From contig JAUCBJ010007743.1 in NCBI GenBank assembly GCA_032718475.1, forward strand, positions 1 through 39,169: DNA of 39,169 nt. Reading direction: 5' to 3'. Within the stretch, counting starts at the first letter, position 1. The number at the start of each line of letters is the position of its first letter. Positions 30 to 34,591 of this stretch are shown here, piece by piece. A program made the position numbers and the translations under genes. This DNA comes from Nemertoderma westbladi (taxonomy: Eukaryota > Animalia > Xenacoelomorpha). The notes under the pieces were generated by a model. It did no database searches, was not told the origin of the DNA, and saw nothing but the letters and a program-made list of their open reading frames with translations.

Positions 30-3000
30 GTGTACATAGGGCCATACTTAGTGGATGCCAGGGGAATTAAGTTAGTGGGTTGGGCGGGACCGCAGGAGGG
101 CGAATCCGAGGTTAACCCCGAGGATTCGGTCTCGTCGGTCGGCGAAAACCTCAGAAAGCGGGGGAAAGTTAGTAGGACGGGGAGGCGACGGGAGTCCGTC
201 GCGACCGACAAGTCTGCTACATCCTCCGCAAAAGTAAGAAGGGTGCTAGAAATAGATCTGGCGTGCCAGTTGGATATGGTGGCGCTAGACCAAAAGGAGT
301 TAGAGAGACAGTTGGAAGAGGGGAGTGCATTGTTGGAGAGAGAGAGAGAACTGGCGAGAGAGAATAAAGAAAGGGCCGAGAGGGTCGCGAGAAACTTTAG
401 AGAGTGTGAGGAGATAGAAATGAGGGAAAGAAAGGAGCGGGAAGAGCGAGAGGCGAAAGAGGCGAGTGAACGTAAAGAGCGTGAGGCGGAGCGAGACCGC
501 GCAGCCGCGAGGCGGCTTGAGAGGATTGCGAGGGAGGCAGAGCTGGCCGAGCAAAGCTTGCGAGAGGATGGGGAGAGAGAGAGAGCGGGAAAGCACGTGC
601 GAGATGACATGCACGCCCGGTTGAGGGGGCTTATGCAATACCAGGCCAAACAGAAGCGCCGATTGAAGCTGGCGCAGTTGGGGCTGTCAGAGAGTGAGGC
701 TGGCTCGGGCAGTGTAATGAGGAGCCAGAAGTTATGGAAACGTTTGTTAATACCCCACTTACAGGGACCGGACGACAGACCCAAGACTGGTGTAACCGTA
801 CGGGCGGGGGGGGGGGGGGGGGGTAATAATAATACGTTAGAGAACGTTCATAGCAGGAAATAATATTTTGCCCGATAATAGTAATTTAAATCCGAATGAT
901 TCTAATTTAAACGTACATAGTAATCCTAGTAATTTAAATAATAATTTAGATCCGAATATACAAAATAATTCAAATAATATAATCACGCAAAATAATTTAA
1001 ATAACAATCCTAATTCGAACGACCAAAATAATCCCGTTTCTAATACAGATGTGCAAAATAATTTAAATAATTTAGAGAATAGTGTTGATAATGGTGCTAT
1101 TAATATAAACATGGCGGACGCAGGTGGCCCGGCAAATGAGAGCCTGGTAGGCCACGTAGTCAGTAGGCAGGGAGCAACGGGGGTGAGAAACCCCAATGAG
1201 AGCCTGGTAGGCCACGTAATCAGTAGGCAGGAGGTGGCGGGGGTGAGAAACCCCAATGAGGGCCTGGTAGGCCACGTAGTTAGTAGGCAGGAAGTAGCGG
1301 GGTTGAGTCAACCCGACGGGAGCCTGCCAGGCCACACAGTGATAGAGGGAGAGGCGGGGGTGAGTAGACCCAGCCGCAGTGGAGTTGGTGCGTCGACTGG
1401 AGAGGGGTGTAGGGGCGAAGTGAGAGATAGTGAAGTGATAGGTGGCGAGCGGGGGGGGGGGGGGGGCTACAGGAGCCCTACAACGAGAGATTAGTAGCGA
1501 GAGGGCGGGGCAGAGAGTGCCCCACAGGCGTCGGCGGATAATGCACGGGGCGAATTAGGTGAACCGCAGCACCCGGCGATGGAGAATAGTAGGGGGATTA
1601 CGAGTATCCCCAGCGGCGTGCGACCGGGTAGAGAGAGAGAGGTTAACGTCGCGAGGGGGCGAGCGACGAGACGTCGAGCCCAGTCAGAAGAGGGAAGAAG
1701 AACAGTGGAGTTTAACCGGGAGGTCGACGAGAGATCTCACGAGCGGGGACACTGCACTGCAGAGAGAAGATGGGAAGAGAGTAGAAGAAGTGTCGTCGCG
1801 AACGACAGAAGAGCAAGGATGGATAGCGAGCCGTCGGCAGTAGAAATGGAGACGGAGAGTCAGTGGGGTTGAACTCCGGGAGATTGCCGTCGTCCCGGAG
1901 AAGCGCGACCTGGCGAGGTGTACTATACGCCGAGAGAGGGGTATAGGGTGTGTGAGGATGAGAACAGTAGAGGAGATCGAAGAGAAACTTCCCGACGGGA
2001 TATAACTGCCGATCGAGGATACGGTAGCCGTGGGGAGGACTTCTTGGATTATTCGAGAAGGTTAAACTTCGAACCCGAGCGACACATACAGACTGTAGGA
2101 CATACTGTAGGCCTTACTGCACATACTATAGGCCATGCTGGGAGAGATAATGTAGGCGATAGGGCAGCGCGGATGACGGGATTAAACCCGGAAGTCGCGG
2201 AGTACATACCGGCAGGTAGGCCAGAAGTGGATAGGCCTATACCGGTACCAGCACAACAGCATGACTACAGCATGCAAGGACATAACATATATCCAGGGGA
2301 GGGGAGAGTTATTGCAGATAGGTGCATGGGCCCCAATATATTAACATCAACCCCAGTACCAAACATACCGGTGGGGGTGGGGGTGACATTCCCCCATCAC
2401 AATATCAACAATATACTCAAACAGGAATAAGAACATCGAACCACCTGGATGAGAACAGATCATGCGACACCGAAATATGGAGGGGGCCGCTACCCCCAAT
2501 GATATATCCGACGCAGAGAAAGGCAGCAGATAGGATGGGCGGACCGCACCCAACAGGGGAATCTATACAGCATCCATCGAACCCATTGGAAGCACAAGCG
2601 ATGGGAATGGCTACATTGATCGATGCATTAAAAACCAGGATCGAGTTACCACCCGTAGAACCATTTAAATTCGATGGGAGTAGGCCGGAAGAATACCTGC
2701 AGTTTCGGCGCATGTATAGCAATGAAATACTAACGAAGAACTTGACGCAGGCGGAGTGCCTAAAATATCTACAAGTGTATACAGGAGGCCCAGCATACGA
2801 CATTGTGAGGCAGTACCAGGGCATCGAGGGCGGCTTCACGACAGCATGGCGGGCACTAGACAGGGAATACGGGCACCCGGCCAAGATCATCCGGCAGACC
2901 CTGAGAGGTACAACATCGGGTGGCCTACAGGATAACCCCGTTAGCATAAAGACATTTGCGAACAAAGTTGAGAAGGCGCTAATCGTGTTAAAGACGCTAG

Positions 3001-3660
3001 ACGCACCATACGAACTCAACGTGTCTAATAACATCACCACGATAGCGCAGGCACTGCCGATGTGGCTGCGCAACAAGTGGAGGAAGATTGCTTTCTCCAC
3101 CCGAGACAAGACGGGTGCGGAACCGGGCCTAGAAGAAATGTCGAGCTTCCTGAACTATGAAGCCGAACTGATAGCGGACCCAGTCTATAGCGAGGATAGC
3201 CTGGGAAAGGGACCAAAGACCGAATACCATAGGCCGAAACCAGAACACAACACGGCGAACGCATTGCCAAAGCTCAGACAATCGCTGCCATACGCGGCGA
3301 TGCAGGGGACTGCTAGTCCTTATGTAGCCAGGGGTAAGACTACATCATGGAGCGGACAGGGGATAAATAACAACACAAATAAACATAACCCCAACACGCC
3401 CAGTAGGCCGAACCCAAACAATAAGAACAGTAGGGACTTCGGTACGAACGCAAGTGCGATACGCAGCGCCTATACAAGGACGGATATAACCCAAACAACA
3501 AATGCCAACTACACACGAACGCACTTCATCAGACCATGAACTGCAGGTATTGGCAAGCACTACCCAGGGAAGATCAGGTAGAATACGCGAGGAGGAATGA
3601 AATTTGTTCTCGATGTGTGATGAGTGGACATAGCTAACCAATGCAAGGAAACACCAATCA
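30..3660 (+). pseudogene. gag: BEL/Pao Gag, long and broken by stops/frameshifts (ORF pieces 30-863, 868-1494, 1579-1872, 1918-2430, 2322-3539)
   Basis: N-terminal PEDSVSSV motif and E/R coiled coil; capsid-like block LPPVEPFKFDGSRPEEYLQFRRMY...LKYLQVYTGGPA...AWRALDREYGHP (DUF1759-like); zinc knuckles in shifted frames ~3500-3645 (CQLHTNALHQTMNC; CSRCVMSGH/..NQC). Confidence 0.85.
1135..1335 (+). repeat. 60-bp in-frame tandem repeat (3 copies plus a degenerate 4th) in gag
   Basis: AATGAG(A/G)GCCTGGTAGGCCACGTA recurs at 1135, 1195, 1255; encodes NESLVGHVVSRQ..AGVRNP. Confidence 0.9.
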
Positions 3661-3719: not shown

Positions 3720-6330
3720 GGAACGGTACTACTCGGGGTAGTACCAGTGAGGGTAATTGGATAAGGCGATCGATCAGTAACCACGCTGATGCTGGTCGAC
3801 AGTGGAGCAGCCTTCACGTTGGTCGAAAATTGGGTGGCCGAAGAGATAGGATTGAAGATGAGGCCAAGTAGAATGGCGGTAACAACCATTTCCAGCAAGG
3901 ATGAGGTCCTGGAAATGAGAACTGGATGGTGCGAGATAGCAGCGATAGCACCGGGATGCGATTATGGGGCGACCATCGACCCCATCCAGGTGATAGAGTC
4001 TATAAATATCAACGCCAGGCGACCAACCAACATCGAGGTCGAACAATATAAATTCCTGGACAATATCGACTTCTCAATACCAGAGGTGGACGTTAGGAAG
4101 GTATCCATTATAGTACGAATGGACTGCCCGACGGCCCACGAGAGAATGCAGACGGTCTTCGGTGAAGACAGGCAGTGTGACCTGGTGGCGATTTTAACAC
4201 CATTCAGGTGGACGCTGAGCAGCCCAATTAAAACCAAGATACCGTTTAGGATGTCGGAGACATCAGGGTGCATGTTCGCGGGAACTATGCGAGAGATGGG
4301 AGATGAGGGAGCGGAGGAGCAGCTCAGGAGACTGCTCAGGCAGGATTTTGGGGGATTGAAAGAGACCGTGGTTGGAACCTCGGTAGAAGATAAACAGGCT
4401 TTACAACGCGTAAAGGAATCGATGACATGCGACGAGGGGCGGTATACCATAGGGATGGTATGGAAACAGCCAAAACTACCGCTACCCGGCAACAAAGGAA
4501 TGGTACTCACGAGGCTTCGTAAGTTGAAGCAAACGCTAAAACGGAGCCACGAAAAGAATGAGTACATTCATAAGACGATTAGGAAGTATGTCGAGAAAGG
4601 ATGGGCCGTGGAGTTACCGGTCGATGAACCGAACACGGACAGGACCTACTACCTACCACTTCACGTGGCTCTAGATCCAAAGAAAGGTAAACTACGGATG
4701 GTAGTTGACGCATCAGCTAAGACCGAAGGCAAATGCCTAAACGATTATCTGTTAGAGGGTCCCAATATCTACAACTCAGGGATCGAGGTCCTACTCAGAT
4801 TCAGAAACGGAAGGCACGCCTTCACCTGCAACATTGAAGGCATGTTCAACCAGGTCCGTGTTACGGAGGAGGATAGCGACAGCCAGCGCTTCCTATGGTA
4901 CAACGGCGATGAGGAATCGTCGACAATACAGATGTACAAGATGGTGGTGCAGAATATGGGGGCCAAGTCATCCTCATTTACGATGACTGTGGCTGTGAGG
5001 GACACAGTAGAGGGGAAAGAGGAGAGATACAGCGCCAAATCCGTCGATATGATTCGACACGGATTCTATGTAGATGACGGGATGGAGTCTGGAAACACGG
5101 TTAAAGAACTACTGGATACAGGCCGTGAAGTTCGCGACATCCTTAAAGGATCCGGGTTTAACCTGACCAAGTTCCAATCCAGCTCGGAAGAGTTCATGAG
5201 AGCCATAGGGGACAGGAGGCCAGAATCAACCATGGACAATCCCACAACAGCCAAGGGACAAGACATGGCGAACAAGAGGGTAGAGTCCCAACAGAAGGCA
5301 CTAGGGATCGTGTGGAACTGAGAGACAGACGAGTTTAAGTACCAACTGAGCCAGGAGGGTGCGGACATCCACACAAACAGGGGCTATGTATCGTACATAG
5401 CGAGGATATACGATCCCCTAGGCCTAGCATCCCCATTATTAGTCACGGGGAAACAGATACTTAAGAAAGTATATAAGCTAAAGGACGAATGGGATACAGA
5501 GGTCCCAGAAGAGATCAGCAAGCAGTGATGCAAGTGGACAGAGAGTTTAGAACAGATGGGGACATACAGCTTGCCACGCGTGTATTTCCCGGATGGGGAC
5601 ATGACGAATCTGGATCTACACATGTTCTCCGATGCGTCGTTGGAGGCATACGGAGCAGCACTTTACCTAGTACAACAGGAGGGGGCTCATAAGCCCAGAC
5701 TTGCATTCAGCAAAGCGAAGTTGACACCGCCAGATTCAGCATCGGTCCCGAAACTCGAGTTGACAGCTGCGAGGTTAGGAGTAAGGGCCACAGCCTACTT
5801 GATGGACGCTATTCCCAACATAGTGGAAACACACTACTGGAGGGACTCCATGGTAGTGCTTGGTTGGCTACACAATGAGAAGACGAGATACCCTATATTC
5901 GTCGCAAATAGGGTGGACGAAATAAGAGCGACGACGGAGTTGGAAAGGTGGCACTACTGCCCAACGGACGAGAACCCAGCGGACTGGTTATCGAGGGGCG
6001 TGGCACGCCACACTTTCTTGAAGAAGGAAGTATTGTGGCAGCACGGACCGCAATTTCTGAACGATAAGACAGCCTGGCCACCGATGAAGAAGGTAGACCC
6101 GGGCTCAGATGAAGTAGTATTAGGGGAAGAGGGAGGAGATTCAGAAGGTGAAGAGATATATAGCCAGATGGTGAGGGAGATAAGGGACGTGCAACCAAAA
6201 CCGGAAGAACTATGCGATAACCAGGGATTTCCTCAAGGGAGTCGGTAAAGACACCAAAAATAAACCAAACATCGATCTGGAGGGAGCGGCCAAGGCCGTG
6301 ATTCGCTACGAATAGAGAAAGAACTACGGC
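3720..6330 (+). pseudogene. pol: BEL/Pao Pol: aspartic protease, reverse transcriptase, Pao-type RNase H (in-frame stops at 5319-5321 and ~5527, frameshift near 6200-6330)
   Basis: LVDSGAAFTLV (protease); YYLPLHVA..KKGKLRMVVDASAK, LNDYLLEGP, IEGMFNQVRV, FYVDDG, GFNLTKF (RT); YDPLG, LHMFSDASLEAYGA, SVPKLELTAA, DSMVVLGW, FVANRV, ENPADWLSRG (RNase H). Confidence 0.93.
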
Positions 6331-6336
6331 GACGAA

Positions 6337-7638
6337 GTGGAGCGCGTCGGTAAACAACAGCATCTCCGCCGGGACAGTGAGCTGATCATGCTGTCGCCAC
6401 AACTCAATGACGATGGGATCTTAGTAATGAATTCCAGAGTGCTAAATATCAACAGCATCATCATTCCACCAAAGCCCATCATCATCCCTAATGGATCGCC
6501 GATAGTCCACCAGATCATCTGGGACTCCCACAAGTCGATATGGCACGGGGGCACCAACCGAACCCTCACGGAGATACGAAGGACCGTTTGGGTCAAACAG
6601 TTAAGGAAGAAGGTAAAGGCGGTAGTGGGGAAGTGCCAGACCTGCCGACGGACGAAGAAGGAGCGGGCCATACAGGAGATGGCGCCACTACCGGCCAGTA
6701 GGGTGAGACAGCACAACCCGCCATTCACGCACTGCGGTGTGGATATGTTCGGGCCGATAAAAATCAGGGTGATGCGGCACACGGAGAAGCGCTATGGCAT
6801 TATCTTCGTATGTAACAACACACGGGCGGTAGGGATAGAACTCGCCCAAGACGCAACCGCATCGGCATTCATCAATGCCCTAGAGAGGTTCAGAGACTGC
6901 AAAGGTGGGACGATCGCAGTAATATACTCCGACAACGGAACCAACTTTGTGGGGGCAGAGAACGAGCTGGCAGATGCCTTGGACATCCTGGAAGGGGAGG
7001 AAGTCAGGGCAGCCATGAGAAGACGACAGGTGAAGTGGGAGAGGAGGACGCCATATTCACCGCATACTCTAGGATGCGTCGAGAGACTCGTGGGTAGTTC
7101 CAAGCGTCTAATGACGAAGTTGATGAACACCCACATGGTAACAGAAGATGTACTAAGGACGGTACTGGCAAAGTGCGAGGGTGTCATTAATAGCAGACCG
7201 CTATATCCAGAAAATGATGACCCAGAGTCATTAGATGTGCTGATACCCAGTCACTTTCTAATGGAGAGACCAGCGACCATCGACATGCGGGGTGTAGACC
7301 CAGACGATATACACTCCCGACAGAGTTGGAAAGTCGCTAAGGCGATAAGCGCGGAGTACTGGAGGAGGTGGGTCGAGGAATACCTACCCACACTTCATAG
7401 AAGTAGCAAGTGGAGAAATACCACTAGGGAGTTGAAGAAGGGTGATCTGGTGATCGTCACGGACGATACCATCATCAACAACCAATGGAGATTGGCAAGA
7501 GTAGTGGACACTTACTCCGATGAGGACGGAAGAGTCCGATCAGTAGAAGTGCGGATAGGTGGAAAGATAGGAGTGAGATATAGGAAAACCTACAGGAGGG
7601 CTGTAGGAAAGTGTTGCTTTCTAGAGGGCGCACCGTAA
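6337..7638 (+). CDS. pol: BEL/Pao integrase plus C-terminal DUF5641-like domain (open frame)
   Basis: H..WHGG...CQTC zinc motif; MAPLPASRV; GVDMFGP, YSDNGTNFVGA, VERLV (DDE); INSRPL; WRRWVEEYLPTL...KW...LKKGDLV...DGRVRSV. Confidence 0.95.
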   Translation: MERVGKQQHLRRDSELIMLSPQLNDDGILVMNSRVLNINSIIIPPKPIIIPNGSPIVHQIIWDSHKSIWHGGTNRTLTEIRRTVWVKQLRKKVKAVVGKCQTCRRTKKERAIQEMAPLPASRVRQHNPPFTHCGVDMFGPIKIRVMRHTEKRYGIIFVCNNTRAVGIELAQDATASAFINALERFRDCKGGTIAVIYSDNGTNFVGAENELADALDILEGEEVRAAMRRRQVKWERRTPYSPHTLGCVERLVGSSKRLMTKLMNTHMVTEDVLRTVLAKCEGVINSRPLYPENDDPESLDVLIPSHFLMERPATIDMRGVDPDDIHSRQSWKVAKAISAEYWRRWVEEYLPTLHRSSKWRNTTRELKKGDLVIVTDDTIINNQWRLARVVDTYSDEDGRVRSVEVRIGGKIGVRYRKTYRRAVGKCCFLEGAP

Positions 7639-7844: not shown

Positions 7845-9190
<1,346 letters not shown>

Positions 9191-9596
9191 AGTAAGAGGG
9201 TACGTAGTACCGTTAGTAGGAGAGTTAGTTAGTAGTAAGAGGGTACGTAGTACCGTTAGTTGGAGAGTTAGTTAGTAGTAAGAGGGTACGTAGTACCGCT
9301 AGTGGAGTGAGTTAGTTAGTTAGTTAGTAAGAGGGTACGTAGTACCGGTGGTAAAAGTTAGTGGAGTTAGAGGAGTTAGTAAGAGGGTACGTAGTACCGG
9401 TAGTAAGAGTAGTGGAGTAGTAAAAGGGTACATAGTACCGGTTAGTAAGAGTTAGAAGAGTTAATAGTAAGAGGGTACGTAGTACCGGTTAGTGAGAGTT
9501 AGTGGAGTTAGTTAGTAAGAGGGTACATAGTACCGGTTAGTAAGAGTTAGAAGAGTTAGTAGTAAGAGGGTACATAGTACCGGTTAGTAAGAGTTA

Positions 9597-10523
9597 CTAC
9601 TACTAGGATCGGCATGCTGCATTGCAGCTGCATTTTTAAGAATGCTGTGCCGGCTTGTCAACAAAATTGCACCGCCACAACTCTCTATCACCCATGACAT
9701 TTGCTAGATCATCCGCATCTTTAAGGCCAGTGTCCTTTAAGATGCGTCTCAAGAAAGTCATGGGCTGTCCACCATGCTTATTCACTCCATGAGGCTGCCA
9801 AAGTACAAGATTATGCACTGGCTGGTCCTCACGGTGAAAGCAATGTCCTGCAAAGCGGAGGCGATTTTGTTCTAGTGTCAAGCTTGGGGGAACCAATGAG
9901 ACACCTCCAATGTTATATAGTGTCTGGTTGGAGATGTGTGCATTGTACTTGACACAATGAACCCGGTGTAGCATTCTTGTGAATGTGCCATCCAGAGATT
10001 TGGTGTCCTCAGCAGTTAGAGCCCAGCATGGACTCCCGTAGAGGAGTACTGGAACTACTGCTGCTCTAAATAATCGGACCTTAAGTTTCCGATTAATTCT
10101 CGGTGACTTCCAAATCCTGGAAAGCCTATTCAAGGCTGCCCATGCCTTTCCCTTACGTATTCGAAGGTCCTCACCTGACTTCCGGATCCATGATCCCAGG
10201 TAACAGAAGTCGTCCACATGCTCAAGCATACCATCCTTTGAGCTTATGCTCATCCGATCAGAGACTTGCTGAGGACTTTTAAAGTTAACTGTCAGAATTT
10301 TGGTCTTTCTGGAGTTAATAAAAAGACCAACACTAGAAGCAGCATGTTCTAATGAGCTGAGGAGCCGTTGGGCTCCCTCTAATGATTCTGAGAGTACTCC
10401 TAAGTCATCAGCAAAGTCTAGATCAGTTAGGTACTTGGCAGGATTTCCTCGACTTCTGGAGCCAGTAGGTGGAGTTATCATCACCCCATCATCATTATGA
10501 TGATCTAAGGACATGCGTAGAAC
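9597..10523 (-). mobile_element. 5'-truncated non-LTR retrotransposon (RTE-like LINE) inserted into the hairpin array; RT C-terminal half in ORF 9636-10514
   Basis: LTDLDFADDL, GLFINSRKTK, FCYLGSWI, AWAALNRLSRIWKS, VLLYGS..WALT, RLRFAGHCFHR; short 3' UTR ending in a (TAG)n tail; flanked by AGAGTTA (9590-9596) and AGAATTA (10524-10530), an imperfect 7-bp TSD. Confidence 0.9.
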
Positions 10524-11288
10524 AGAATTAGAAGAGTTAGTAGTAAGAGGGTACGTAGTACCGGTTAGTAAGAGTTAGAAGAGTTAGTAGTAAGAGGGTA
10601 CGTAGTACCGGTTAGTAAGAGTTAGTGGAGTTAGTTGGTAAGAGGGTACATAGTACCGGTAGTAAGAGTTAGTAGGAGTGAGAGGAGGAGTTAGAGGTTA
10701 GTAAGAGGGTATGTAGTACCGTTTAGTAGGAGTTAGTTAGAAGTTAGTAAGAGGGTACGTATAGTACAGTACCGTTAGTAGTAAGAGTTAGTGGTTGGAG
10801 GGTATGTATGATATAAATATAGTAAGAGTTAGTAGAGATTAGCTAGGAAGTTAGTAGAGCTAGTAGTGAGTAGTGAGAGGGGGGCACGTGGGTACAGCTG
10901 GATAAATCGTGTAGGCCACGTGACACATGTACTGCCCATAGAGTAGGCCAGAAAGTGGATTAAAACAGAAATAATCCATTAGTAGGCACTGATAGCACAG
11001 TTGTAGGATTAAATTAAATATTAAAATAAATAAAATTAGAAAATCAGACAAATTATGGTAACAGTAGGAGAAATATTCCAGAACATAATTAAAGTAACGG
11101 ACAGAATTACGAAATTTAGTAAAATTAAGCACTTTTAGGAAATAAGGTAGGAAAATTAGGCGAAAACCTAACATTCAGTGAGAAGTAGGCCATTATCGGA
11201 CTGTATAAACCATCCTAACTTCATCACTCATCTGTATTGCGCCTTGGCAAGGCACCACCTTATAGGTGAGCGATTGGGAGAGTTCGAA

Positions 11289-13699
11289 ATGGCGGAGAAA
11301 CTTGTTCGAAAGAGAAAGGCGGAGTTGGGAGGAAAGGAGATACTGGTGGATTTCACCGAGAGGCATCCGGAAGAGAAGACGAGGGGATATTACGAGCGGT
11401 TAGAGAGGGGTCACAAAGCGCGAGCGCTACAGGACCATTTCAGGGAGGTGCACGAACAGCGGCTGGTCGGGACCTATGGGACACCGTCGCTAGACAATGC
11501 GATCTTCGAGCATTTCCACTACGTGGTGAAGGGAGACGAGGCGAAGTTCAGGATACTGAAGTATCCAAAGGAACCACCGAGAAAGGACTGGAACAGGTTC
11601 GTAGAGTCCGTCCCGTTCGAGGAGGGGCTCGGTGGGGTAGGCCAGAACCATACTCCTACATTTGGCCGCGCCAAATGGGGACATTCTCCTATTCAACCTG
11701 GGAACATATGGGAGGAAGAATGGGCCAAAGTTGAACCGGTTGCCAAAGGCGGTGCAAACCCTAGTAAGAGAGAAGTCGACTATAAAGGTGGGATCGGCGA
11801 TCCGCGACGATGCAGAGAGAATCATCGGTCCGGACACCCCCAACCTCCTGGACATGCAGACGGTCTACATGGCTATGACAGCACCAGACGGGTTGGGACT
11901 AGTAGAGAACGCAGGCCATTGTGGAGCGGTGGTGATGGGCCAGCTAATGGGGCTCGTGTGTCACAAACCAATGGACTGGGGTAAATTCAGAGAGGAGTAC
12001 GGAGCGGAGTTAGTGAACTCGCTGAAGTGGGGAGCAAGACCGGGGAAGCAAGAGGTGTATCAATTCCGGAGAGGAGCGATAAAGGTATATCAGAAGCGAT
12101 ATATCCTGCAGGAGGACTGGATAATGATAGGTTTGCTAAACCTATTCATGACCGTGGTTATCGAGAGAGAACCAACGGAGAACCAACAAATATCTAGTAG
12201 ACGGAGAGGTGGATACGCCATATCAGAGGTGGGAGCAGCTAGAGGCGGATAGACAAGAGCCGAAGCGATTGGAAGAAATCGCTAGGCGAGAAAGGAGGGA
12301 GGCAGAAGAAAGGGAGGAGGAAGCAAGAAGGGAGAGCTATGGATTCGAGGAACAGGCGGCCTTAGATGAGCTACACTGGACATCAGGAAGTTCGGGCGAG
12401 TCTCTAGGGCGAGAATTGGGGTGGACGGTGGGATCACCGAAACAGTCGACATCGGGATTGCAGACGACGCCCATACCAGCGGGCGCCAAGGGCGACTTCA
12501 CACAGAGCAGGCCAGGGGAGCTAGAAGGATGGAGAATCACGGGCGAGAGCCAAGGTGGGAAGGGTCATGGTGGATCCACCGGGATACCGGGATTGGAGCC
12601 ACTCGCAGAGGGGGGCGAAAATGATGATGAGTTCGGAGAGATGCCGTCCATCGAGAGAATCGGCCACTCGGACACGGACTTGGTTGGCGGGAGGGTGGTG
12701 ACGGCCAGCGGGGCGAGGGCCTTCTGGGATAGACCCGGCAAGTGGGCCTGGGTGCATGAGGAGCCGGCAATGGATTTCGCAGGGAGCACCATCAGGTTGG
12801 GCGAGCAACTGGGGATGGCACCACGGGTAGTATTCGGAGAGACGATGCCCGGGCAGGGCGAGGAGATAGACGTGGACAGGGACGCTAACGTCCAGAAGTT
12901 CGCTTACCAGCGACTCCACAGACTGAGGAGATTGCTTGGGACGAAAGACGACGTGGGGTGGGAGGCATTGGTACTCGGCTGCGATTACTGCGGGAGGCAG
13001 ACTCACCAGGAAAGGAGCTGCTTGTACCGATTCCAGAAAGGGACTAGTTGTCTCTACTGCCGCGAGTCGAGCCACAGGATGGGGGCATGTCCACGGTTGC
13101 ACAACCGGTGTTCTAAGTGCAACTTCTGGGGGCACTACGGACGCCAGTGCGACTGGATGGATGATGAGGAGAAGTTTAGGATCTTCGAGGAGTGGGCCGA
13201 TGTTGGCGCCATGACCCGACAGCGGATGAAGGCCCAGGAATTCCAGTGGGGCTTCTTTAATATCAACCAGGAGGCCCATCTGGAGATTATTAAACGGAGA
13301 CTTCCGTTTACCTATCAGGAGGTGTCAACGGCGGCGTCGTATGCCAGAGTGATAAATAAGCAGAGGTATTTGGACAGGTGGACGCCACAGAACCGAGGAG
13401 AGTTCAGAGATTTCTTGGCGGAGCATGTGCCGCGGGCAATGAAAGTGATCCTATGGGACGCCACTAGGGGGAAACAACAGGGCCATTCGGAGGGGCCACC
13501 CGCGAAGCGATACCGGGAGCTGATAACACCAGCACCCAAGGAGTCGACGACGGGAATCAGTAGAGAGGTGACGGCGAGGGTCAGGAGCCTGAAAGGGGAT
13601 AAGACCAAGGGAGCGGCAGTGGCCAGGAAACGACCGAGGGAGGAGGACGACAGAGGGAAGGAGTTGAGATGGTTCCCAAAGTCGGGTGGAACGAACTAG
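11289..13699 (+). pseudogene. Accessory ORF of the BEL/Pao element (~800 codons when two frameshifts are repaired): DEDDy-like 3'-5' exonuclease, coiled coil/linker, three CCHC zinc knuckles, basic tail
   Basis: Overlapping ORFs 11178-11984, 11662-12252, 12209-13699 in successive frames. ILLHLAAPNGDILLFNL...LPKAVQTLVREKSTIKVGSAIRDDAERI...LLDMQ...WGARP...YQKRYILQED resembles RNase D/WRN exonucleases. CDYCGRQTHQERSC, CLYCRESSHRMGAC and CSKCNFWGHYGRQC are all CX2CX4HX4C. Confidence 0.7.
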
Positions 13700-14390
13700 A
13701 ACTTGGGTGTGGAGATGCCTGGAAGTCGCCACATGTGAAGTAATACGAACTCCTAAGTGCAAATTTAATTAAAAGTGCAAATTAGTATGTACGTATGTAA
13801 TAATCATTAGTTTAGTCAAATAGCAAATATAATCAAAGTAAGTACTATAGTCATATAACCTTTTCCAATTAGCTACTGGGACTGGGGACCAATTGACTAT
13901 GACAGGACGAGACATTAGACGACTTCACACTTCTTGAGTGCGATGGCACAGGAGGGGAGGGTGAGGCTCGTCAGGAGAGAGTGGGTTGAGATAGGGGTTG
14001 AGTACAGAACGTGAGGGGAGAGTGCGGGTGCAATTCAAGTGTGGGGGGGGGGGAAGTAAGAGGTAGAGCGAGGGACAGGGAGGTCCGAGAGTTAGAGTGG
14101 AAGAGAACTTAGAGTCAGTTAGAGCGGAGTTAGAGTGGAGAGAGTGTTGGGGAAACAAAAATTGTGTGAGAGAAACCCACAATTCGCCCGACACGGGACG
14201 CCAGATGTCTTGGTGCAAGATAGATGAAGTTGCACCAAGACAGGGTAGCGATATCATGCCCATAGGGAGCGGCCTGGAAAGCCGGCTCCGAGAAAAAATA
14301 ACTCCACCCCACACCCGATAGTAGATCGGGTTCCAGCGGAATTGATGCGCACTTGAGGTAGATGCTATCTTCTCACCGGGAAGATAGCAT

Positions 14391-14399
14391 GGGGGGGAG
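14391..14399 (+). promoter_or_regulatory. Polypurine tract of the BEL/Pao element
   Basis: GGGGGGGAG directly before TGT at 14400. Confidence 0.7.
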
Positions 14400-14958
14400 T
14401 GTTAGCGGATTCAATTCCGCTAACCACCCCATAAAGTTGGGAAACGGTGCCTTTAAGCAATATTGGGGAGTACGAGATTGATTGCCAATCAACCTCGTAT
14501 CACCCCCAATAAATGGGGACGACAAAACCCCAAAGGGCCGTACACAATGGAGGTCAGAGGTTAAGCCTCCGGGAGAGGGAAAGTGACAGTAGAAAGGGGG
14601 GAAACACTCCCACAAAGGTGGGAGCCGAGAATTAGGTTATCAACCAATGGGGGGACAGGAAAGGCATCAGCTGAGTAATAAGGCCAACGTAGTGTAATAT
14701 ATTACCAGTTGGTGTTTCATATCACAGTTAGTTTACTCAGTCAGTTAGGGCAGAATGGTAACACTTTATTACCGTCGCCGCCACCGTCACCAATTACATC
14801 ATATATTCTGTATTACATATATCTATCAATTGTGCTATCTGTCTTACTCAACTATATTTTATATACTCATTAATAATATCGGAACGATAACAAACTCTTT
14901 CACTCACGGCGGGGACGCGTAAATAAACCAAAACCGGTCGGGATGTGATCCCGTCACA
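14400..14958 (+). repeat. Putative 3' LTR (559 bp) of the BEL/Pao element
   Basis: Begins TGTTAGCGGAT, ends ATCCCGTCACA (8/11 inverted match); AATAAA near 14922; the next base starts a different element. The partner LTR is not in the window. Confidence 0.7.
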
Positions 14959-20484: not shown

Positions 20485-20770
20485 TGCGATATAATACTGT
20501 AATATAGAATAGTACTGTCAGACTGTAGTACCCGTCTCGCCTGCCTGATAAGTGTACTACCACCGGCACGGGTACTATCGGTACGGTACAATACAGCAAT
20601 AGGAATAGATAGGCCTATTATAGTATTATTTCTTACCAGTCCGTGCAGCCGTGGTATTGCAGTATTACCGACTACCGGTATTATTTTCATATCTGGCAGT
20701 CTGGGAATATAAATAAACCTCATTATACTGTTATAAGCCGCTGACCCCACCAATAGAATAAAAGAAGAAA

Positions 20771-21600
20771 ATGCCAAAGAAAAAGGGAAGTACTAGGAAG
20801 GAAACAATAAAAAAGGCTGAACATCCAACAACAAGTGGATGTACCGGTACGAGAGATGAGTTAGTAGTGGATGAGGGGTCTGGGGATGATGAAGGTTCGA
20901 TACACAGTGAGGGAAATAGAAGTGTTATAGTATTAGACGAGGAAGTTGTTGAAGATACCGTACAGTCCCCTGATGGGGAATTACAGAGCAGAACTGTAGA
21001 TAGACTGCTAGACTTTATAGAAGGCACCACCCAGAAGAGTTCCTCGGGGAGACAGACGTGTTTAAGAGGGATTGTAGATATATTCCTTACTTGTAGCGAC
21101 GTGAATGACGTCATAGAGGATAGAAGACTTACTCTTATAGACTGCGTGGAGCGGAGTCTCAAGAAAGGTTCATCTGAAGAACGATTCTTGGCTGTTCATC
21201 TAGGGGAGGTTTTGTGTTTTTCTTGGGGCCCTGATTCGGAGGAGCTCGGGTTGATGATGAAACCCATACTGATCCCGATAGTTTCAGACGTCTCCGAGAG
21301 ACAAGAGCTGCGCGGACGTGCGGCGAGGTGTCTGGCGTTGCTAAACTTCGTTTTATCCAGCGATATTATCAACATAACAGAAACGATGGCGGAATTAAAG
21401 AACATCTACCGTTTATCTTTCCTTAAAGGTGACGGTTCGGTCCCTTCTTTGCCACCCTCCGTGTCCGCGTTACACAACGTGTCGCTAATGTCCTGGTCAC
21501 TGTTGGCCACATTAACTCCTTTATCCCGCGTAGAGGAACTTATAGAAGACAACCTTGCTAAACTCCCTCAACTGCTGCTATCCGATGATGTTAACCTAAG
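20771..21600 (+). CDS. IFRD1: Interferon-related developmental regulator (IFRD1/2 family), exon 1
   Basis: MPKKK start; DRRLTLIDCVERSLKKG, WSLLATL, LLLSDDVNL; exon ends ...CTAAG|GTTAGT donor at 21601 (phase 2). Confidence 0.92.
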
Positions 21601-22429
21601 GTTAGTGGCAGAGGTAGACCTCTAGACCAGTCAGGTGGGTCTAATATCACGAATATATTTTTAATTAATATATTTTAAAAATCAAATTCGAATATAACAT
21701 GTAAACTGTGGTTGGTGTCTGGGGCTCTTAAATTTACCTGAACCAAAATATTCAACCAAATAACCACGACCACGGCTGCACGGGTTTCATGGAAGACATA
21801 CAAACGATAGATAGCTAAAGGCTCTATTATTATTGTTTTTGATTTGAGGCAGAAGTATCAAACACAATGGGAGGAACCCTTTTAAACTGAATTGGTAGCG
21901 ACTAACAATGTGTTTACAGCATGTTTACACGGTATCTGCTATATGGTAGTTTGGTAGTAATAAACAATAATTCTTGGAAGTAAATAAGGTCAACAAAAAA
22001 AGGTAAACAAGTCCCCGGTAATGCGCATTGGTGGTTTCTGCCTCAATTACTAAAAATCCAATCTTCAATTACGGTACATGTGTATTGCGTTGTATTTATT
22101 ATTATCGTCAATTCCGGTAGTATAGTAATTAGCATCAATATATCATCACCCATGTGAAGAATACCAGTGGTTTCACTCGCGGCCAAATTCAGTTAGAATT
22201 TTGCGATGAAGAATTTGTATTTTCTTTAAATTTCCCCTGGTTTACTGTTTTATAGCGGTCGCTATTCAATCTTATAATCTGCACCGATACAGCTGCTAAT
22301 TCGTTTATTGTTTTATTTAGATTTTGTAACTTGAATTTTTCGTGAAAACCTGGTATTCCGCGCATCTTATTCTTATATATAACAAACAGAATACGAATAT
22401 ACTTCACATGGGCCAAACATATTGTAATG

Positions 22430-22720
22430 GGGTGTAAACGTTAAGCAGACAATGGTGCAGACAGTGGTGCAGACACCTGGTGCAGACAGTGGTGCAGACA
22501 GTGGTGCAGACATCTGGTGCAGACAGTGGTGCAGACGCTGGTGCAGACAGTTTACAGACAGTTGTACAGACAGTGTTGCAGGCAGTGGTGCAGACACCTG
22601 GTGCAGACAGTGGTGCAGACAGCAGTGTAGATAGTGGTGCAGACAGCGGTGCAGACACTGGTGCAGACAGCGGTGCAGACACCTGGTGCAGATGTGGTGC
22701 AGACAGTGGTGGATGCAGTG
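22430..22720. repeat. Solo arm of a foldback element: GGGTGTAAACGTTAAGCAGAC followed by a ~12-bp GGTGCAGACA(G/C)T minisatellite, in the IFRD intron
   Basis: Same terminus and repeat unit as the arms at 27672 and 28962. Confidence 0.85.
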
Positions 22721-23239
22721 GTTCAATACAAGTGGATTAGATGGGAGACCATGTGTCAGGGGCAAGTGGCTGAACTGGTTAGCGCTACTGGTAAGGCCTG
22801 ATAGGCCGAAACGTACATATAGCGCTGATTCAAACCCCTGTGACGTGCTTCCTCATTTATTCAATTTCTGAACAAGCCATTATATTACATTATTATAAAT
22901 TATTGTAACTCACTGTTAATTTAATATCTTTAGAAACTGGTTACAATTTAATTCTGTGACATTTTATAGAATTGAATAGGTGTATAGGCCTATACTATCG
23001 ATTTGAAAAATTAGCAGTAAATGAAAAGTAATCGAACTCGTCAGCCTCCAGGAGTTCACGACTTCCATGTCTTGTAACTATAGTATAGATCGCCTTGGGT
23101 AACGCGTTATATATGTTTTTGAGAGAATACGATACGATACGAAAATTGCAAAATAAAAAAAAGTTTATTTCTGGTAAAAAAAATTTCATTTGCTTGAAAA
23201 TTTTTCTGTAGAAATACTATGATAAATATAAAAGGCTAG

Positions 23240-23989: not shown

Positions 23990-24515
23990 GTTACCAATAT
24001 AAAATAAGTATTTCTTATTTATAATTCCTTCGATATTGGAGTTGCAACTTGCAATTATGAATTTATGTACTAATATGGAATAACATTCAAAGCTGAAAGT
24101 TTGAACTCAAACTCTCATCCCTAGTGGTATTAATTCATTGTGTACAAATATTAAACCTAATAATCAATTTACTTTAGTTAAATTTATAATTACATTATTA
24201 CGTATCTTGTTCTAGAACCATTTAATTTTATAGTAACTTTGGATTCATTTTCTAATGGCCAATGTACCAATGATTTTCTTTAAAGAAGTATTTTTTGTCC
24301 CCGCTGTAATCCGCATTTCAATCAATTAAAGGTAAATAATTTTTTCCTTATCCTTCGGCTTCGAAATAGTATGAGTGTACTATTATTCATTTTAATTTAA
24401 TTAAAAAGTTAAATTATTTTTCCCTTTAAAAGACAGTGCAGTGCAACCACGTTCTGTATTTCTCTGCCTATTACTTTGACAACCACATTATTAATTAAAA
24501 CTTATTATGTTTTAG

Positions 24516-25017
24516 GATTTCGGCTGGGGAATGTTTGGCTCTGCTGTACGAACTGGGGAGAGAGAGCGGTCGTCGCACCTTCCGAGGGCAGACTCATCGG
24601 GAGTTATTGGAGCGATTGGAGGAGTTGGCGACCGATAGTAATCGGCACAGGGCTAAACGAGATCGGAGGCAACAGCGGTCCTGTTTCCGGGATATTCTGC
24701 GGAGTATATCGGGGATGGAATACCCCTACACTAAGATACGGTTCGGTAGGGAACTTCTGGAACTCAACTCATGGTGTCGGAAACTCCAGTACAATGTGTT
24801 TAAGGATATCCTTGGGTCCGGGTTGAGTTTGTACCTCCGAGAGAATCATTTACTCCGAGATATATTCGGGTTGGGGACGCCTCTTACTGTGGATCACGTC
24901 GTAGCCAAAGTATCCAAACGGGAGCGTCAGTTTATCAACTCTGAGAACTTTAAGGCTCAAACAACAGTCCGGGGAAAGTTGAGGGATAAACGCAGTTACC
25001 GGATTCCCGACGAATAG
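24516..25017 (+). CDS. IFRD1: IFRD family, exon 2 (joined CDS 830+502 nt = 443 aa plus stop)
   Basis: TTTTAG|G acceptor restores DDVNLR-ISAGECLALLYEL; LATDSNRHRAKRDRRQQRSCFRDIL, ENHLLRDIFGLG, KAQTTVRGKLRDKR (IFRD C-terminal motif). Confidence 0.92.
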
Positions 25018-27483: not shown

Positions 27484-29560
27484 TAGGGCTCAACAGAAGC
27501 TTCGGCTTCGGTTCGGTTCGGGCCGAAGTTTGGCAATTTCGGTTCGGTTCGGCTTCTGCAATTGATACTGCAGAAGCCCGGAGCTAAATATTCCAAGTAT
27601 TACATTGACTGATTGAGCTCAGAAGACAGTAAGACTAATCAATCTGTCCATCGTTGTACTAATTAATTTTAGAGTGTAAACGTTAAGCAGACACTGGTGC
27701 AGAGCAGACAGTGGTGCAGACAATGGTGCAGACAGTGATGCAGACAGTGATACAGACAGTGGTGCAGACACAGGGTGCAGACAGTGGTGCACGCACTGGT
27801 GCAGACAGTGGTGGAGACCCAGACAGTAGTGCAGACATTGGTGCAGACAGTGGTGCAGACAGTGGTGCAGATACTGGTGCAGACAGTGGTGCAGACACCT
27901 GGTGCAGACAATGGTGCAGACACTGGTGCAGACAGTGGTACAGACACTGGTGCAGACACTGGTGCAGACAGTGGTACAGACACCTGGTGCAAACAGTATG
28001 GTGCAGACACTGGTGCAGACAGTGGTGCAGACACTGGTGCAGAGACAGTGGTGCAGACAGTGGTGCAGACAGTGGTGCAGATACTGGTGCAGACAGTGGT
28101 ACAGACACTGGTGCAGACAGTAAAGGGGCGAGCAGGTTAGTAAAGGAGCAGGTTTCAGAGGAGTATTGGGGGAACCAAAACAATAAACGTTATTGTTTTG
28201 CGGGCTAAGAATACCCAAGGGCCAAGAATACTCGCAGGCTAAGAATACTCGCGGGCTGAGAATTCCTGAGACCTTACTGTAGTTAGTGAATGTATAGGCC
28301 TATCCCCAGCATGAGACAATAACTTAATGAGCTCGTTTTATTATACAGTAATAAGCAGTGGCTCCAGTAAAGGTAAACAAATTAAACATACTCTGTATAA
28401 AGTAAGTCATGTATAAACAATCAAACACTGTCGCTTAAACCTCATTCCTTGGAGACATTGCTGCTTACAATTTATAGACATTATTGTTTATATGAAAACG
28501 AGAATACCGATTAATTACTTTCGTACACACCTCTTATAATTATTTGTAATCAGGGCACATTTACCCGCACGCACCCCGACTTGTACTACATACGTCCTCC
28601 CTACTTCATGTAGAACCTTTCAGTAGTTACTCGCATATTTGTAGATAATAAAGTGTATGATAAAATATAATATAATAGTGCCTGGTGGTATTGTGTTTTG
28701 TGGTACTCTGGTAATTCAGTATTTTCACCAGGAGTCTGCACCACTGTCTGCACCACTGTCTGCACCACTGTCCGCATCAGGTGTCTGCACCACTGTCTGC
28801 ACCAGTGTTTGCACCACTGTCCGCACCAGTGTCTGCACCACTGTCTGCACTAATGTCTGCACCACTGTCTGCACGCTGCACCACTGTCTGCACCAGTGTC
28901 TGCACCACTGGCCGCACCAGGTGTCTGCAGTCTGCACCACTGTCTGGTTAACGTTTACACCCTTAATTTTGGACTGAACTTCCATTTAAATGGCTTTTTT
29001 TTAATATTTTCCAGGTTACTTGGGTAGTTTCAAAATTAGCTTAATTATACAGTAGTTTAGGTTAGGCTAAATATTGCCATTTTACTTTGTAGTACCATTT
29101 TTTTTAATTAATCATAACTTTGATACATAATACCAAATATACCTACTACCTCATATAAATAGTATTACAAAGACTACCTGTACTTTTAGTGAGGTTTTCT
29201 AAATTTGACGTCACTACTGTACGGCTTACTACGGGTGAAAATATGGTGCATACAGTAAGTGCATGCATACAGTAAGTATACAGTAGTTTAGGTTAGTAAT
29301 GTACAGTAATGTAAATATTGCCATTTTATTTTGTAGTATTTATTTTTTTAATTAATCATAGCTTTCTCGCCAAGTCCGCAGACCAAATAGGTACCAGTCT
29401 GCCACTGCCAGTCAGACAATAGTGACGTAAATACGAATTTATGACCATTACTTGCTAACTTTCTGAACTTCGGTTCGGATTCGGTTCGGTTCGGCCCGAA
29501 GTTGGCCCTGCTTCGGTTCGGTTCGGTTCGGCCCCGTAAAGTGCCTTCTGTTGAACCCTA
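27484..29560. mobile_element. Non-autonomous hAT-like DNA transposon (2077 bp including nested insert)
   Basis: TIR TAGGGCTCAACAGAAG / CTTCTGTTGAACCCTA; exact 8-bp TSD GTCTCAAC at 27476-27483 and 29561-29568; subterminal (TTCGG)n at both ends. Confidence 0.9.
27672..28962. mobile_element. Foldback (Mutator-like) element with minisatellite arms, nested in the hAT-like element
   Basis: Left GAGTGTAAACGTTAAGCAGAC plus (GGTGCAGACAGT)n to ~28120; inverted arm ~28735-28962 ending GTTAACGTTTACACCC; flanks TTAATTTTA / TTAATTTTG (8/9 match, 9-bp TSD-like). Confidence 0.8.
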
Positions 29561-30146: not shown

Positions 30147-30335
30147 TGTGGAGATGGCGTCTAGCCACGAAATGAAAACGTATGTAGACTCAAGTTCGAG
30201 CGATCGCTGATGGCATACTGCAGTACTGTCGTACAATTCTGTAGGTGGGCCTAGAGTTCCTCTCTAGGGTTGCTAGGCAACCGTAATAACAAAGTTTTGG
30301 GATTGTATAATATGTATGTCAGTGGGGCTGCCACA
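30147..30335 (-). repeat. Gypsy 3' LTR (189 bp)
   Basis: Direct repeat of 34282-34471; preceded on the - strand by G18 PPT (30339-30356). Confidence 0.96.
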
Positions 30336-30370
30336 TGACCCCCCCCCCCCCCCCCCAGTCTCGAAACGTA

Positions 30371-33300
30371 TTAGAGATATTCAGGTGGACGGACCGTCCG
30401 GCCCGATCGAGTTTGTACGGGCGGTTGGGCTGGGGTTGGTGGTCTTTGCGTTAGTACCGGCGGTGTAGGAGGTACCGGAGGTGCGTTCGGGGGTCGACCT
30501 CGGCGCCGCGGTTGGCCGAGAACGACCGGCTCGGTAAAATCGAGATGGGCCGGTTTGAGTCGGTCGACTGAAATCGTTTCAGTTCGACCGCCCATATCGA
30601 TCTTAAATGTTTTGGGTCCGGGGGTGAGGACCTTGTAAGGCCCCTCGTAGGGGCGTTCGAATGGCGTCCGGTGGGCGTCGCGCCGGACGAAAACGTAGGT
30701 AGCGTCGTGGAGGTCCGGTGGAACCGACGACGGAGTCAGTCCGTGGCGTGACGTCGGTACCGGAGCGAACCGCCCGACCGTATCCCGGAGTTGAGGGAGG
30801 ATCGTGGACGGCGAGTGCTGGGCGCCTGTAGCCGGCGGAAGGAACTCGCCCGGGACGGTGAGGGGGGCACCGTAGACCAGCTCGGCGGAGGAGGTCCCCA
30901 AGTCGTCCTTGGGAGCGGTCCGGATTCCGAGGAGAACCCACGGCAACTCGTCGACCCAATCGGGGCCGGTGAGCGAGGCCCGCAGGGCGGACTTTAGGTG
31001 GCGGTGGAAACGTTCCACCAGTCCGTTCGCTTGTGGGTGGTAGGCCGTGGTGCGGTGCAGTTGGGTGCCCAGCAGCTGGTTGACGGCGGACCAGAGCTGG
31101 GAGGTAAACTGCGAACCGCGGTCGGAGGAGAGATCCGCGGGGACGCCGAACCGAGATATCCAGATGGAGATGAGAGCCCGGGCGCAACTCTCGGTGGAGG
31201 TCTCGGTGAGGGGCACGGCCTCTGGCCACCGAGTGAACCGGTCTACCATCGTCAGCAGGTGAGTGAACCCGCGCGATGGTGGTAGAGGGCCGACCAGATC
31301 CACGTGGATGTGGTCGAACCGGCGGGGTGGGGGGTGGCGAAGGTGCCGAGGGGCGCGCGAACGTGGCGTTGCACCTTGGAAGACTGGCAAGGGATGCAGG
31401 TCTTCGCCCACTCGCCCACCTCTTTGCGGAGGCCGTGCCACACGAACCTGTCGGCGACGAGTTTCTTGGTGGTACGAGCGCCGGGGTGAGACAGGCCGTG
31501 CAGGGCGTCGAAGACGCGCCGTCGCCAGGCGACGGGGACGACGGGGCGCGGGTGTCCGAGAGAAACGTCGCAAAGTAGAGTGGCGTTGGCGGGGGCGAGC
31601 GGGACGTCTTCCAGTTGGAGGCCGGACACGGCGGAGCGGTAGGTTGGCAGCTCGGGGTCGGCGAGTTGGGCAGCCGCCATAGCCGTGTAGTCGAGGCCGG
31701 GGAGGAGGGTTCGAACCGCGCTGACCGTAGTCCTGGAGAGCGCATCCGCCACACAGTTGTCTTTGCCAGCGACGTGTTCGATCGCCGTGGTGAACTCGGA
31801 AATGTAGGCGATGTGCCGTTGTTGCCGATTCGACCACGGGTCGCTGATCTTGGCGAATGCGAACGTCAGGGGTTTGTGGTCTGTGTAGGCGGTGAATACG
31901 CGGCCCTCCAGGTAGTACCGGAAGTGGCGAACAGCGAGGTACAGCGCGAGGAGTTCCCGGTCGAACGCGCTGTACTTCACCTCCGGGGGTCGAAGTTGGC
32001 GGCTGAAGAACGCCAGGGGGCGCCACGAGTCGCCGACGAGCTGTTCTAGAACGGCGCCCACCGCCGTGCCGGATGCGTCCACGGTGAGCGCCGTCGGTGC
32101 GTTGGCGTTGGGGTGGGCGAGCATCGTGGCGTTGGCGAGGGCTTCCTTGGCGTTCCGGAACGCCGCCGCCATGTCGGGGGTCCAGTCGATGGACTTGGGT
32201 TTACCGGCAAGGGCCGCGTAGAGGGGCCGCATGATGGCGGCGGCCGCGGGGACGAACCGATGATAGAAGTTCACCATCCCCACGAACTCCTGCAGGCCCT
32301 TGACGGTGGTCGGTTGGGTGAACTCACGGATGGCGGCGACCTTGTCGGGGAGCGGGTAGGCGCCGTGGGCCGAGATTCGGTGGCCGAGGAAGTCGATGGT
32401 CGACCGACCGAACTCGCACTTGGCGAGGTTGATCACGAGGCCGTGTTCTTGGAGGCGCGCGAAGAGCTGACGGAGGTGGTCACGGTGTTCCTTGGGGGAC
32501 CGACTCGCGACGAGGACGTCGTCTAGGTAGACGAAGAGGAAGTCGAGTCCCTGGCACACCGTGTCCATCAGTCTCTGGAAGGCCTGGGCCGCGTTTTTCA
32601 GCCCGAACGGCATTCGAAGGAATTCAAACAGGCCGAACGGGGTTATAACCGCGGTCTTGGCGATGTCGGCCTCGGTTACGGGGATCTGGTGGTAGCCGCG
32701 CACCAGATCGATCTTAGAAAAGATCTTCGCCCCAGCCAGTCTGGAGGAGAAGTCCTGGATATGGGGGATGGGGTACCGGTCCGGAATCGTGGCGTCGTTG
32801 AGGCGTCGGTAGTCGCCACACGGCCGCCATCCACCCGAGGGTTTAGGGGCCATGTGGAGGGGTGACGCCCATGGACTGTTGGACCGGCGGATGATCCCCA
32901 TCTCCTCCATCGTCCGGAACTCGTCCCGCGCGATCTCGAGTTTGTCTGGAGGCAGACGACGGGCGCGGGAGTAGACCGGGGGTCCCTCGGTGGGGATGTA
33001 ATGTTCGACCCCGTGTTTCGCGGTGGGGTCGGAGAACCGAGGGATCGTAATATCGGGGAACTCGGCGAGGAGCCGAGCGAACTCGTCGTCCGAGGCGGTG
33101 ACAGAACCGAGGTGGGGGGCGTGGCCCGTAGTCCGCCCGCACGGGATCGAGGTCAACGTCTCGGCGTCGACCAGACGACGGCCTCTCAGGTCGACCAACA
33201 TGTTGTTCGCTCGGAGGAAGTCGGCTCCGAGGAGAGGCTGGGCGACGTCGGCCGCGATAAACTTCCACTGGAAACGGCGGGAGTGGAAGTCGAGTTTGAC

Positions 33301-33520
33301 GGAGCGGTGGCCGTACGTTCGAATGTACGTTTTGTTGGCGGCGAGGAGGGGCGGCCCGCTCTGTCCCGAACGTTCCTCGCGAGTCGTCGCGGGAATAACG
33401 CTTACCTCCGCCCCGGTGTCGACCAAGAAGCGTTGCGCGGAAACGCGGTCCCAGGCAAACAGCAGCAGGTCGGTGTGGCCGGCCTTTGTAACTGCTACAA
33501 ACGGCCGGCCGGGGCGTTTC
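30371..33520 (-). CDS. pol: Gypsy Pol (PR-RT-RNaseH-IN), one frameshift in C-runs at ~31325-31337
   Basis: [10 protein letters not shown]; [32 protein letters not shown]; TVDAS, DRELLA, TDHKPL, ADALSR; HGLSHPG..CIPCQ; [23 protein letters not shown]; YEGPY. Confidence 0.95.
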
Positions 33521-34184
33521 CCTGGTAACTGCAGGGCGGGCGGCACTTCCTGGCTGTGGGGCCGAACGTCTGGTGATAATAGAACCAGTTCGAGTGCGGG
33601 GCCCGCGGGGCGGGAGTCGACGCCGACGAGGAGTTCTTGCCGGTTCGCTGCGGCGGGACCGGCGTCGGTTTCCTGACGGCGTGGGCCGCGAGTGGGGTCT
33701 GCCGGGAGGCCTCCCACAGCGCGTCGGCCCGGTCCGCAACCCTGTCGAGGTCGCGGAATTGCTGTTGGAGGCGGATTGCGGCGGGCATCTGCCGGAGGAA
33801 GGCCTCCTCGAAGAGGAGTCCCGCGTTGTCGTCGCCGAGGAGCGCCTGCATTTCTCCGAGGAGTTGCGAGGGGCGCCGGTCACCGAGGCCGTCGAGGTCC
33901 CAGAGTCGGGCTGCGCGCTCGCGTCGGGAGAGCCCGAAGGCCTTGAGAAGTTGGCCCTTGAGTTTGAGGTACTTCTCAGTAGCAGGAGGGTTCTGGATGA
34001 GTTTTAGGAGGCGAGCGGCTGTCTCCTGGTCGAGGGCCCCCACCACGTAATAATATTTTGTAGCGTCCTCGGTGATGCTACGAATGTGGAACTGTGCCTC
34101 CGCCTGGGCGAACCACACCTCGGGTTGGGTGGTCCAGAACGGAGGCAGCTTAATAGAAACGGCGTTGGCGGTCGCTTCGGCCAT
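33495..34184 (-). CDS. gag: Gypsy Gag
   Basis: [32 protein letters not shown]; [10 protein letters not shown]; C-terminal (C>F)[17 protein letters not shown], a CHCC-type motif with the first Cys lost. Confidence 0.93.
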
Positions 34185-34267
34185 TGTCGTCAACACAGTT
34201 TCGGTGGCTGATCAGTTTGATTGCAGGATCATGCTGCGAGTCGCGGTCTCAAGAGTTCGTCTTGAGA

Positions 34268-34280
34268 CGCTGGGTCACCA
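34268..34280 (-). promoter_or_regulatory. Primer-binding site TGGTGACCCAGCG (tRNA-Trp-like)
   Basis: Starts 1 nt after the 5' LTR with TGG (complement of tRNA CCA); tRNA identity inferred from recalled similarity only. Confidence 0.75.
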
Positions 34281-34281
34281 A

Positions 34282-34471: not shown

Positions 34472-34591
34472 AAGTTAAGTTAGGAGGGCAGTCTGGGCAG
34501 TACTCCGTAAGGTACATTAAATACAGTAGTTACCTAACTAACAGAAAACAGCGAGACTGCCCTGTTGTGTTTGTTTCTACTTATGTGAAAA

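Follow-up and report, generated by a model that had tools for sequence, protein, structure and literature searches.

A decayed copy of a Bel/Pao LTR retrotransposon in Nemertoderma westbladi carries, at its ORF3 position, a stretch that we read, with a probability of roughly 0.45, as the broken 5' half of an additional gene encoding a WRN/EXD2-like fold that would bind RNA ends rather than cut them, with three CCHC zinc knuckles encoded downstream. On this reading the crippled exonuclease pocket would hold the 3' end of an RNA and the knuckles would grip its single-stranded part; without the first catalytic aspartate, RNA ends would be bound and shielded rather than trimmed, and the element's own RNA might be protected or handled in the particle, or guarded against host small-RNA and decay enzymes. 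It is tempting to go one step further and to imagine that a captured, catalytically disarmed exonuclease with three zinc knuckles, carried by a widespread Bel/Pao family, mimics host RNA handlers of the EXD1 or Rrp6-Air type and suppresses small-RNA silencing or RNA decay; we consider this extended scenario improbable.

The host element and the ORF3 position

The window (39,169 nucleotides of contig JAUCBJ010007743.1, the whole stretch of DNA that was analysed) is repeat-rich eukaryotic DNA. The features on which the argument relies are the following:

2322..3539 (+): Bel/Pao gag-region frame with DUF1759 (Pfam, E 2.5e-10)
3765..6248 (+): pol, with protease, reverse transcriptase (RT) and Pao RNase H region (Asp_protease_2; RVT_1, weak; Peptidase_A17, E 1.6e-21 and 1.5e-12)
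6316..7638 (+): integrase with DUF5641 tail (Pfam), in a frame that differs from that of the RNase H piece
7845..10672 (+): GTTA microsatellite and 43-47 nt tandem array, split by a LINE RT fragment (repeat analysis, Pfam)
11289..11639 (+): ORF3 5' piece, 117 aa, an open frame in which 7 of 11 shared variants are synonymous
11598..11606 (+): likely ExoI register, with Phe at the first acidic position and Glu at the second, placed by spacing
11638..11660 (+): break, a reading-frame change between the 5' and the exonuclease-like pieces, with a stop of the downstream frame at 11638
11641..12252 (+): putative WRN/EXD2-like DEDDy exonuclease-fold piece, with LxHLA, KVG, ExoII Asp (11809), ExoIII Tyr (12100) and Glu (12112), from ESM Atlas, profile and alignment
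12152..13699 (+): frame of 515 aa whose beginning is charged and helical, with Cx2Cx4Hx4C knuckles at 12980, 13049 and 13109 (ORF list; zf-CCHC_4, E 0.031)
14391..14399 (+): candidate polypurine tract, 9 nt, from the sequence
14400..14763 (+): candidate 3' LTR, 364 nt with 5-nt inverted ends, unpaired, the 5' LTR lying beyond the window

The stretch is assigned to the ORF3 position because its frames sit 3' of a Bel/Pao gag-pol and 5' of the polypurine tract and candidate LTR. Both gag and pol are present, and the order protease, RT, RNase H, integrase, with Pao-type domains, is the one by which Bel/Pao elements are defined (PMC8742986). The 9-nt polypurine tract before the 364-nt candidate 3' LTR likewise agrees with the definition of the Belpaoviridae, which has a polypurine tract (~10 nt) before a 3' LTR of 0.2-1.2 kb (PMC8742986). 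The same source describes lengths of 4.2-10 kb and a third gene, if any, that is env-like, the only kind of third gene listed for Bel/Pao in this ICTV profile. Our element exceeds 12 kb even after subtraction of the microsatellite and the LINE fragment, which places it outside the 4.2-10 kb range, and its third gene is exonuclease-like, not env-like; since length and third gene are given as a descriptive range, we regard the element as a variant and not as a non-member.

Decay of the copy shows in pol as in-frame stops at 5319 and 5526, between gag and protease as further stops, and ahead of the integrase as a frame change; gag-pol has at least four breaks. The purine fraction is 0.59-0.65 from gag to the candidate LTR versus 0.51 in the flank. 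No second copy of the candidate LTR was found within the window, and one contig of run X5 carries different sequence up to exactly 14400, as an LTR start would give. The integrase has 11 distant relatives (31-37% identity), and a relative of ORF3 was absent from the 11 distant integrase loci examined; the linkage of pol with ORF3 is seen in this copy only.

Several neighbours deserve a mention in their own right. Within the element, the GTTA array is perfect (336 copies, 7845-9190) and has grown from the element's tandem unit, by real expansion or as an assembly effect; the LINE RT 3' fragment (9639-10574, minus strand) is inserted within the tandem array, and an Asn-rich frame of low complexity (841-1494, +), in which a 20-residue repeat occurs three times in near-identical form, lies at the Bel/Pao gag N-terminal region. 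Further along the window, a second, GC-rich LTR retrotransposon (30147-34451) bears minus-strand genes for RT, RNase H and integrase, with pol in overlapping frames; its two 170-nt LTRs are identical and therefore indicate a young insertion. An uninterrupted short-chain dehydrogenase frame (34589-35392, +) starts about 140 nt after the LTR of this second element. Two pieces that match IFRD (interferon-related developmental regulator; 20762-21625 and 24499-25017, +) are likely host exons or a broken copy. An array of ~146-nt units with a conserved core (36223-39159), accompanied by a 300-nt exact repeat, may be a satellite or the subterminal array of a mobile element, and 12-nt minisatellite blocks (22429-22729, 27682-28131 and 28717-28929, direct and inverted) are possibly foldback or Helitron-like remnants.

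The probable exonuclease-like fold and its catalytic positions

The preliminary description of this DNA had assigned the stretch to the RNase D/WRN-like DEDDy exonucleases, and the assignment holds: piece 11641-12252 very probably adopts a distant fold of the WRN/EXD2-like DEDDy type, as judged from two comparisons of sequence. In the ESM Atlas, clusters of PF01612 make up 28 of the 30 matches of the piece (top score 0.93); the shared features number 167, just below the 170 typical of true members, and shuffled sequences reach 0.9 in 4-10 of 100 cases. Against a profile of 130 WRN/EXD2-like exonucleases collected from bacterial genomes, a reference set that retrieves WRN, EXD2 and mut-7 first in the PDB, the piece scores 7.2 bits, the best of 198 window segments of at least 60 aa and a value reached by none of 1000 shuffles. 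It fits this profile better than those of RNase D (9 sequences; reached by 13 of 1000 shuffles) or NrnC (19 sequences; 186 of 1000). An hhalign comparison with 10 sequences gave the expected register with a probability of 0.8% and an E of 0.075, which is not significant.

The Pfam match and the predicted structure to which the preliminary description had looked did not materialize: Pfam returned no match for either piece or for a read-through joined by X, and the single-sequence AlphaFold model (pLDDT 33) was unusable, Foldseek on it giving nothing usable. Supplying 62 family rows as a guide gave a model of pLDDT 66 that resembled EXD2 with E 6.4e-3; this is circular, and we set it aside as evidence because those rows dictate the fold. 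An alignment with 62 references shows K49, G51, D57, Q151, Y154 and W160 as invariant (the Lys and Gly of KVG, the Asp of ExoII, and three residues around ExoIII, namely Gln, Tyr and Trp); of the 36 aligned columns in which 90% of the references agree, 13 hold the identical residue in the piece. Identity to the WRN/EXD2-like references is 16-24%, with insertions, and lies below Pfam detection; the Trp-to-Tyr spacing is 24 versus 12 in the references. A PDB sequence search with the exonuclease piece found nothing, no homologues outside the species appeared in metagenome, viral and phage collections or in protein searches, and a word-index search confined to near lengths gave 0 of 356 candidates for the exonuclease piece and 0 of 7998 for the knuckle frame. 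The 11 matches from phmmer over 1.84 billion representatives were multi-repeat proteins matching residues 32-84 and were dropped; from the alignments of the first two we take them to be TPR-like.

As regards the active site, the ExoI first proposed, SLDNA (11487..11501, +), is placed 53 residues ahead of the LxHL strand, where the reference families have 15-18, and had to be abandoned. A D-T-E near 11550 in the third frame was likewise rejected as ExoI, needing two frame changes and being wrongly spaced. Most likely ExoI reads F-x-E, with the second residue kept and the first Asp lost, in a register placed by spacing: the Glu at nt 11604 lies 18 residues before the matching His, and the Glu-to-Gln spacing in WRN-like references is 17 in 106 of the 108 in which it was measurable, out of 130 (15 in RNase D and NrnC). 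The ExoI block at 11598-11606 itself scores negative and ranked third. The ExoII Asp (nt 11809) stands intact within the KVG block, in an invariant column, and the ExoIII Tyr is kept at nt 12100, followed by Glu (nt 12112) at the acidic position, that is YxxxE instead of YxxxD; both had been correctly read in the preliminary description. The four inferred acidic positions read Phe/Glu/Asp/Glu (F-E-D-E), so that of the marks of an active DEDDy enzyme this copy has the ExoII Asp and has neither the D-x-E of ExoI nor the YxxxD of ExoIII. In the trypanosome enzyme TbRND, loss or mutation of the first Asp abolishes activity (PMC7797062, in part), and mouse EXD1, whose acidic set (A-E-L-E) is similar to F-E-D-E, is inactive (PMC4712191, in part). 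Between the two options raised at the outset, a decayed active enzyme or an EXD1-like pseudo-nuclease, the residues lean towards the latter.

Frame breaks, other copies and competing explanations

Frame 1 begins at 11289, with no other ATG in 11150-11300, and is open to 11984; frame 2 (11641-12252) overlaps it. The overlapping ORFs and the peptides quoted earlier are all present in the sequence, and the claimed repair works, as an X placed near the break yields a single open frame of 320 aa. Because the profile score gains nothing when the upstream 5' piece is added (6.5 versus 7.2 bits), the join of the two pieces rests on spacing and synonymous variation.

The variation comes from other copies. 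With region 10900-14700, four runs of one species label give 5690, 8936, 6159 and 92 contigs at 80-100% identity, which points to many diverged copies. Among the 40 variant rows listed of 989, 32 of which fall in three frames, 11 of 15 shared variants are synonymous in the two frames of the stretch, as compared with 2 and 1 when they are read in the other frames, and 11 of the 15 sit at third positions (p 0.002); 3 of 5 shared variants are synonymous in the knuckle frame; and of the 12 differences almost confined to this copy, as assigned by shares, only 3 are so. Mostly synonymous shared variants indicate that both pieces were coding and constrained in the family, while this copy drifts. The breaks in ORF3 are probably specific to the copy. 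In deleted copies 11563-11565 is fused to 13284 and to 14478, and these junctions link the 5' piece with both the knuckle frame and the LTR.

The knuckle frame (12152-13699) overlaps the exonuclease piece and has its first Met at residue 164; in the ESM Atlas it leads to zf-CCHC clusters, at scores below 0.9. It is probably the rest of ORF3, a protein of ~800 residues broken twice, and a single twice-broken ORF3, in line with the lesion density in gag-pol, is the simplest reading. An env function was considered and rejected for ORF3, no membrane-spanning stretch standing out (maximum 19-residue hydropathy 1.46).

The residues that survive would also suit a different history, which we hold to be somewhat unlikely, in which the product of the family is an active DEDDy 3'-5' exonuclease that trims the ends of element RNA or cDNA, or host small RNAs, and this copy has lost the first Asp or has its ExoI elsewhere. 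With ExoI Glu, ExoII Asp and ExoIII Tyr kept and the last position conservatively changed to Glu, three of the four acidic positions would fit an active family too; a variant set, DEED, is retained in rotifer ORF3s (PMC5408684, in part) and DEDD in Dada elements (PMC3706591, in part), and the present copy is decayed elsewhere, as its gag-pol breaks attest. However, decay by a single substitution does not explain the first acidic position, whose codon would need more than one substitution to encode Asp, and no variant falls at 11598-11606 or 12112-12114 among the 40 rows listed of 989, a weak point since most rows are hidden.

The frame change near 11640 might instead be common to the family, as a programmed frameshift or as the boundary of two separate products. 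No indel near the break occurs among the 12 best-supported ones listed of 98, short contigs being possibly clipped at indels, and the upstream frame stays open for 114 codons beyond the break; yet 315 of 5000 synonymous resamples also produce such an open stretch, a slippery heptamer of the classic type is absent from 11561-11700, the break would separate ExoI from the next strand of the domain, and the lesion density elsewhere in the copy is similar, all of which makes a shared frame change very improbable. It is quite improbable, too, that the ORF3 region and the LTR are parts of a different element, nested or non-autonomous, or that the exonuclease likeness arose by chance. The ~3.6 kb of repeats and LINE fragment between integrase and ORF3, the position of the 5' LTR outside the window and the blank standard profile searches speak for one or the other, but the same 43-47 nt tandem unit runs from just after the integrase to just before ORF3, one strand bias extends throughout, and two methods, the ESM Atlas and the profile test, both point to PF01612. 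We retain, at the probability given above, the broken gene for an RNA-end-binding exonuclease fold as the preferred reading.

Relation to known systems

An exonuclease ORF in Bel/Pao was not found in the literature searched, which was open-access only, with Repbase and GyDB outside it. Malik, Henikoff and Eickbush (2000) are said to mention, perhaps, an exonuclease domain in nematode BEL elements. The word 'exonuclease' was not found in PMC3118150, PMC13524379 and PMC2774666, nor was a Bel/Pao exonuclease found by term look-up in PMC11662393 and PMC9094657.

Close parallels are the DEDDy-like ORF3s described in the Juno and Vesta LTR elements and the Athena/Terminon elements of bdelloid rotifers (PMC5408684, in part), echoed in excerpts of PMC5718144, PMC6431247 and PMC6338049; their activity is stated as not shown (PMC5408684, in part). 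Juno, Vesta and Athena share with our stretch an RNase D/WRN-like domain at the ORF3 position of an LTR element and an altered acidic set. They differ in that the host here is Bel/Pao, that the first acidic position is Phe whereas the rotifer set, DEED, is described as intact, and that the domain here probably runs on into a helical, charged region and then three CCHC knuckles. With its many copies and its marks of purifying selection, the present family would lend itself to per-copy and selection analyses, unlike the low-copy rotifer families. Dada DNA transposons also bear a DEDDy domain, with a CCHC motif within the same protein family, but there the domain lies inside the transposase of a DNA transposon and has all four acidic residues (PMC3706591, in part).

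Among host proteins, WRN, EXD2 and mut-7 (PF01612) share the LxQLA-like strand, the KVG-ExoII block and the QxxYxxxD-like ExoIII helix, and are set apart by the low identity, the insertions and the incomplete acidic set noted above. RNase D of Trypanosoma brucei (TbRND) likewise has an exonuclease domain followed by CCHC fingers; these tandem fingers bind RNA, and the combination is called very unusual (PMC7797062, in part). In this layout the pocket receives the 3' end of the RNA that the fingers grip. TbRND is, however, an active host enzyme with a full DEDD and four adjacent fingers, whereas the knuckles here lie ~280 residues on, across a second frame change. EXD1 resembles the stretch in its DEDD-family fold, its lost first Asp and its proposed RNA-binding role (PMC4712191, in part), but it is a host piRNA factor with an N-terminal Lsm domain and a dimer hook; neither is seen here, Pfam on the 5' piece giving no such match, the gene lies within a repeated mobile element, and the ExoII Asp and the Tyr are kept.

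If this were only a decayed DEDDy ORF3, Bel/Pao would be added to the known list of carriers; if the pocket proved disarmed family-wide, cargo capture by LTR elements would extend from enzymes to pseudo-enzymes aimed at RNA surveillance. The Bel/Pao host, the F-E-D-E site and the knuckles make this stretch a variant of the known DEDDy ORF3 cargo.
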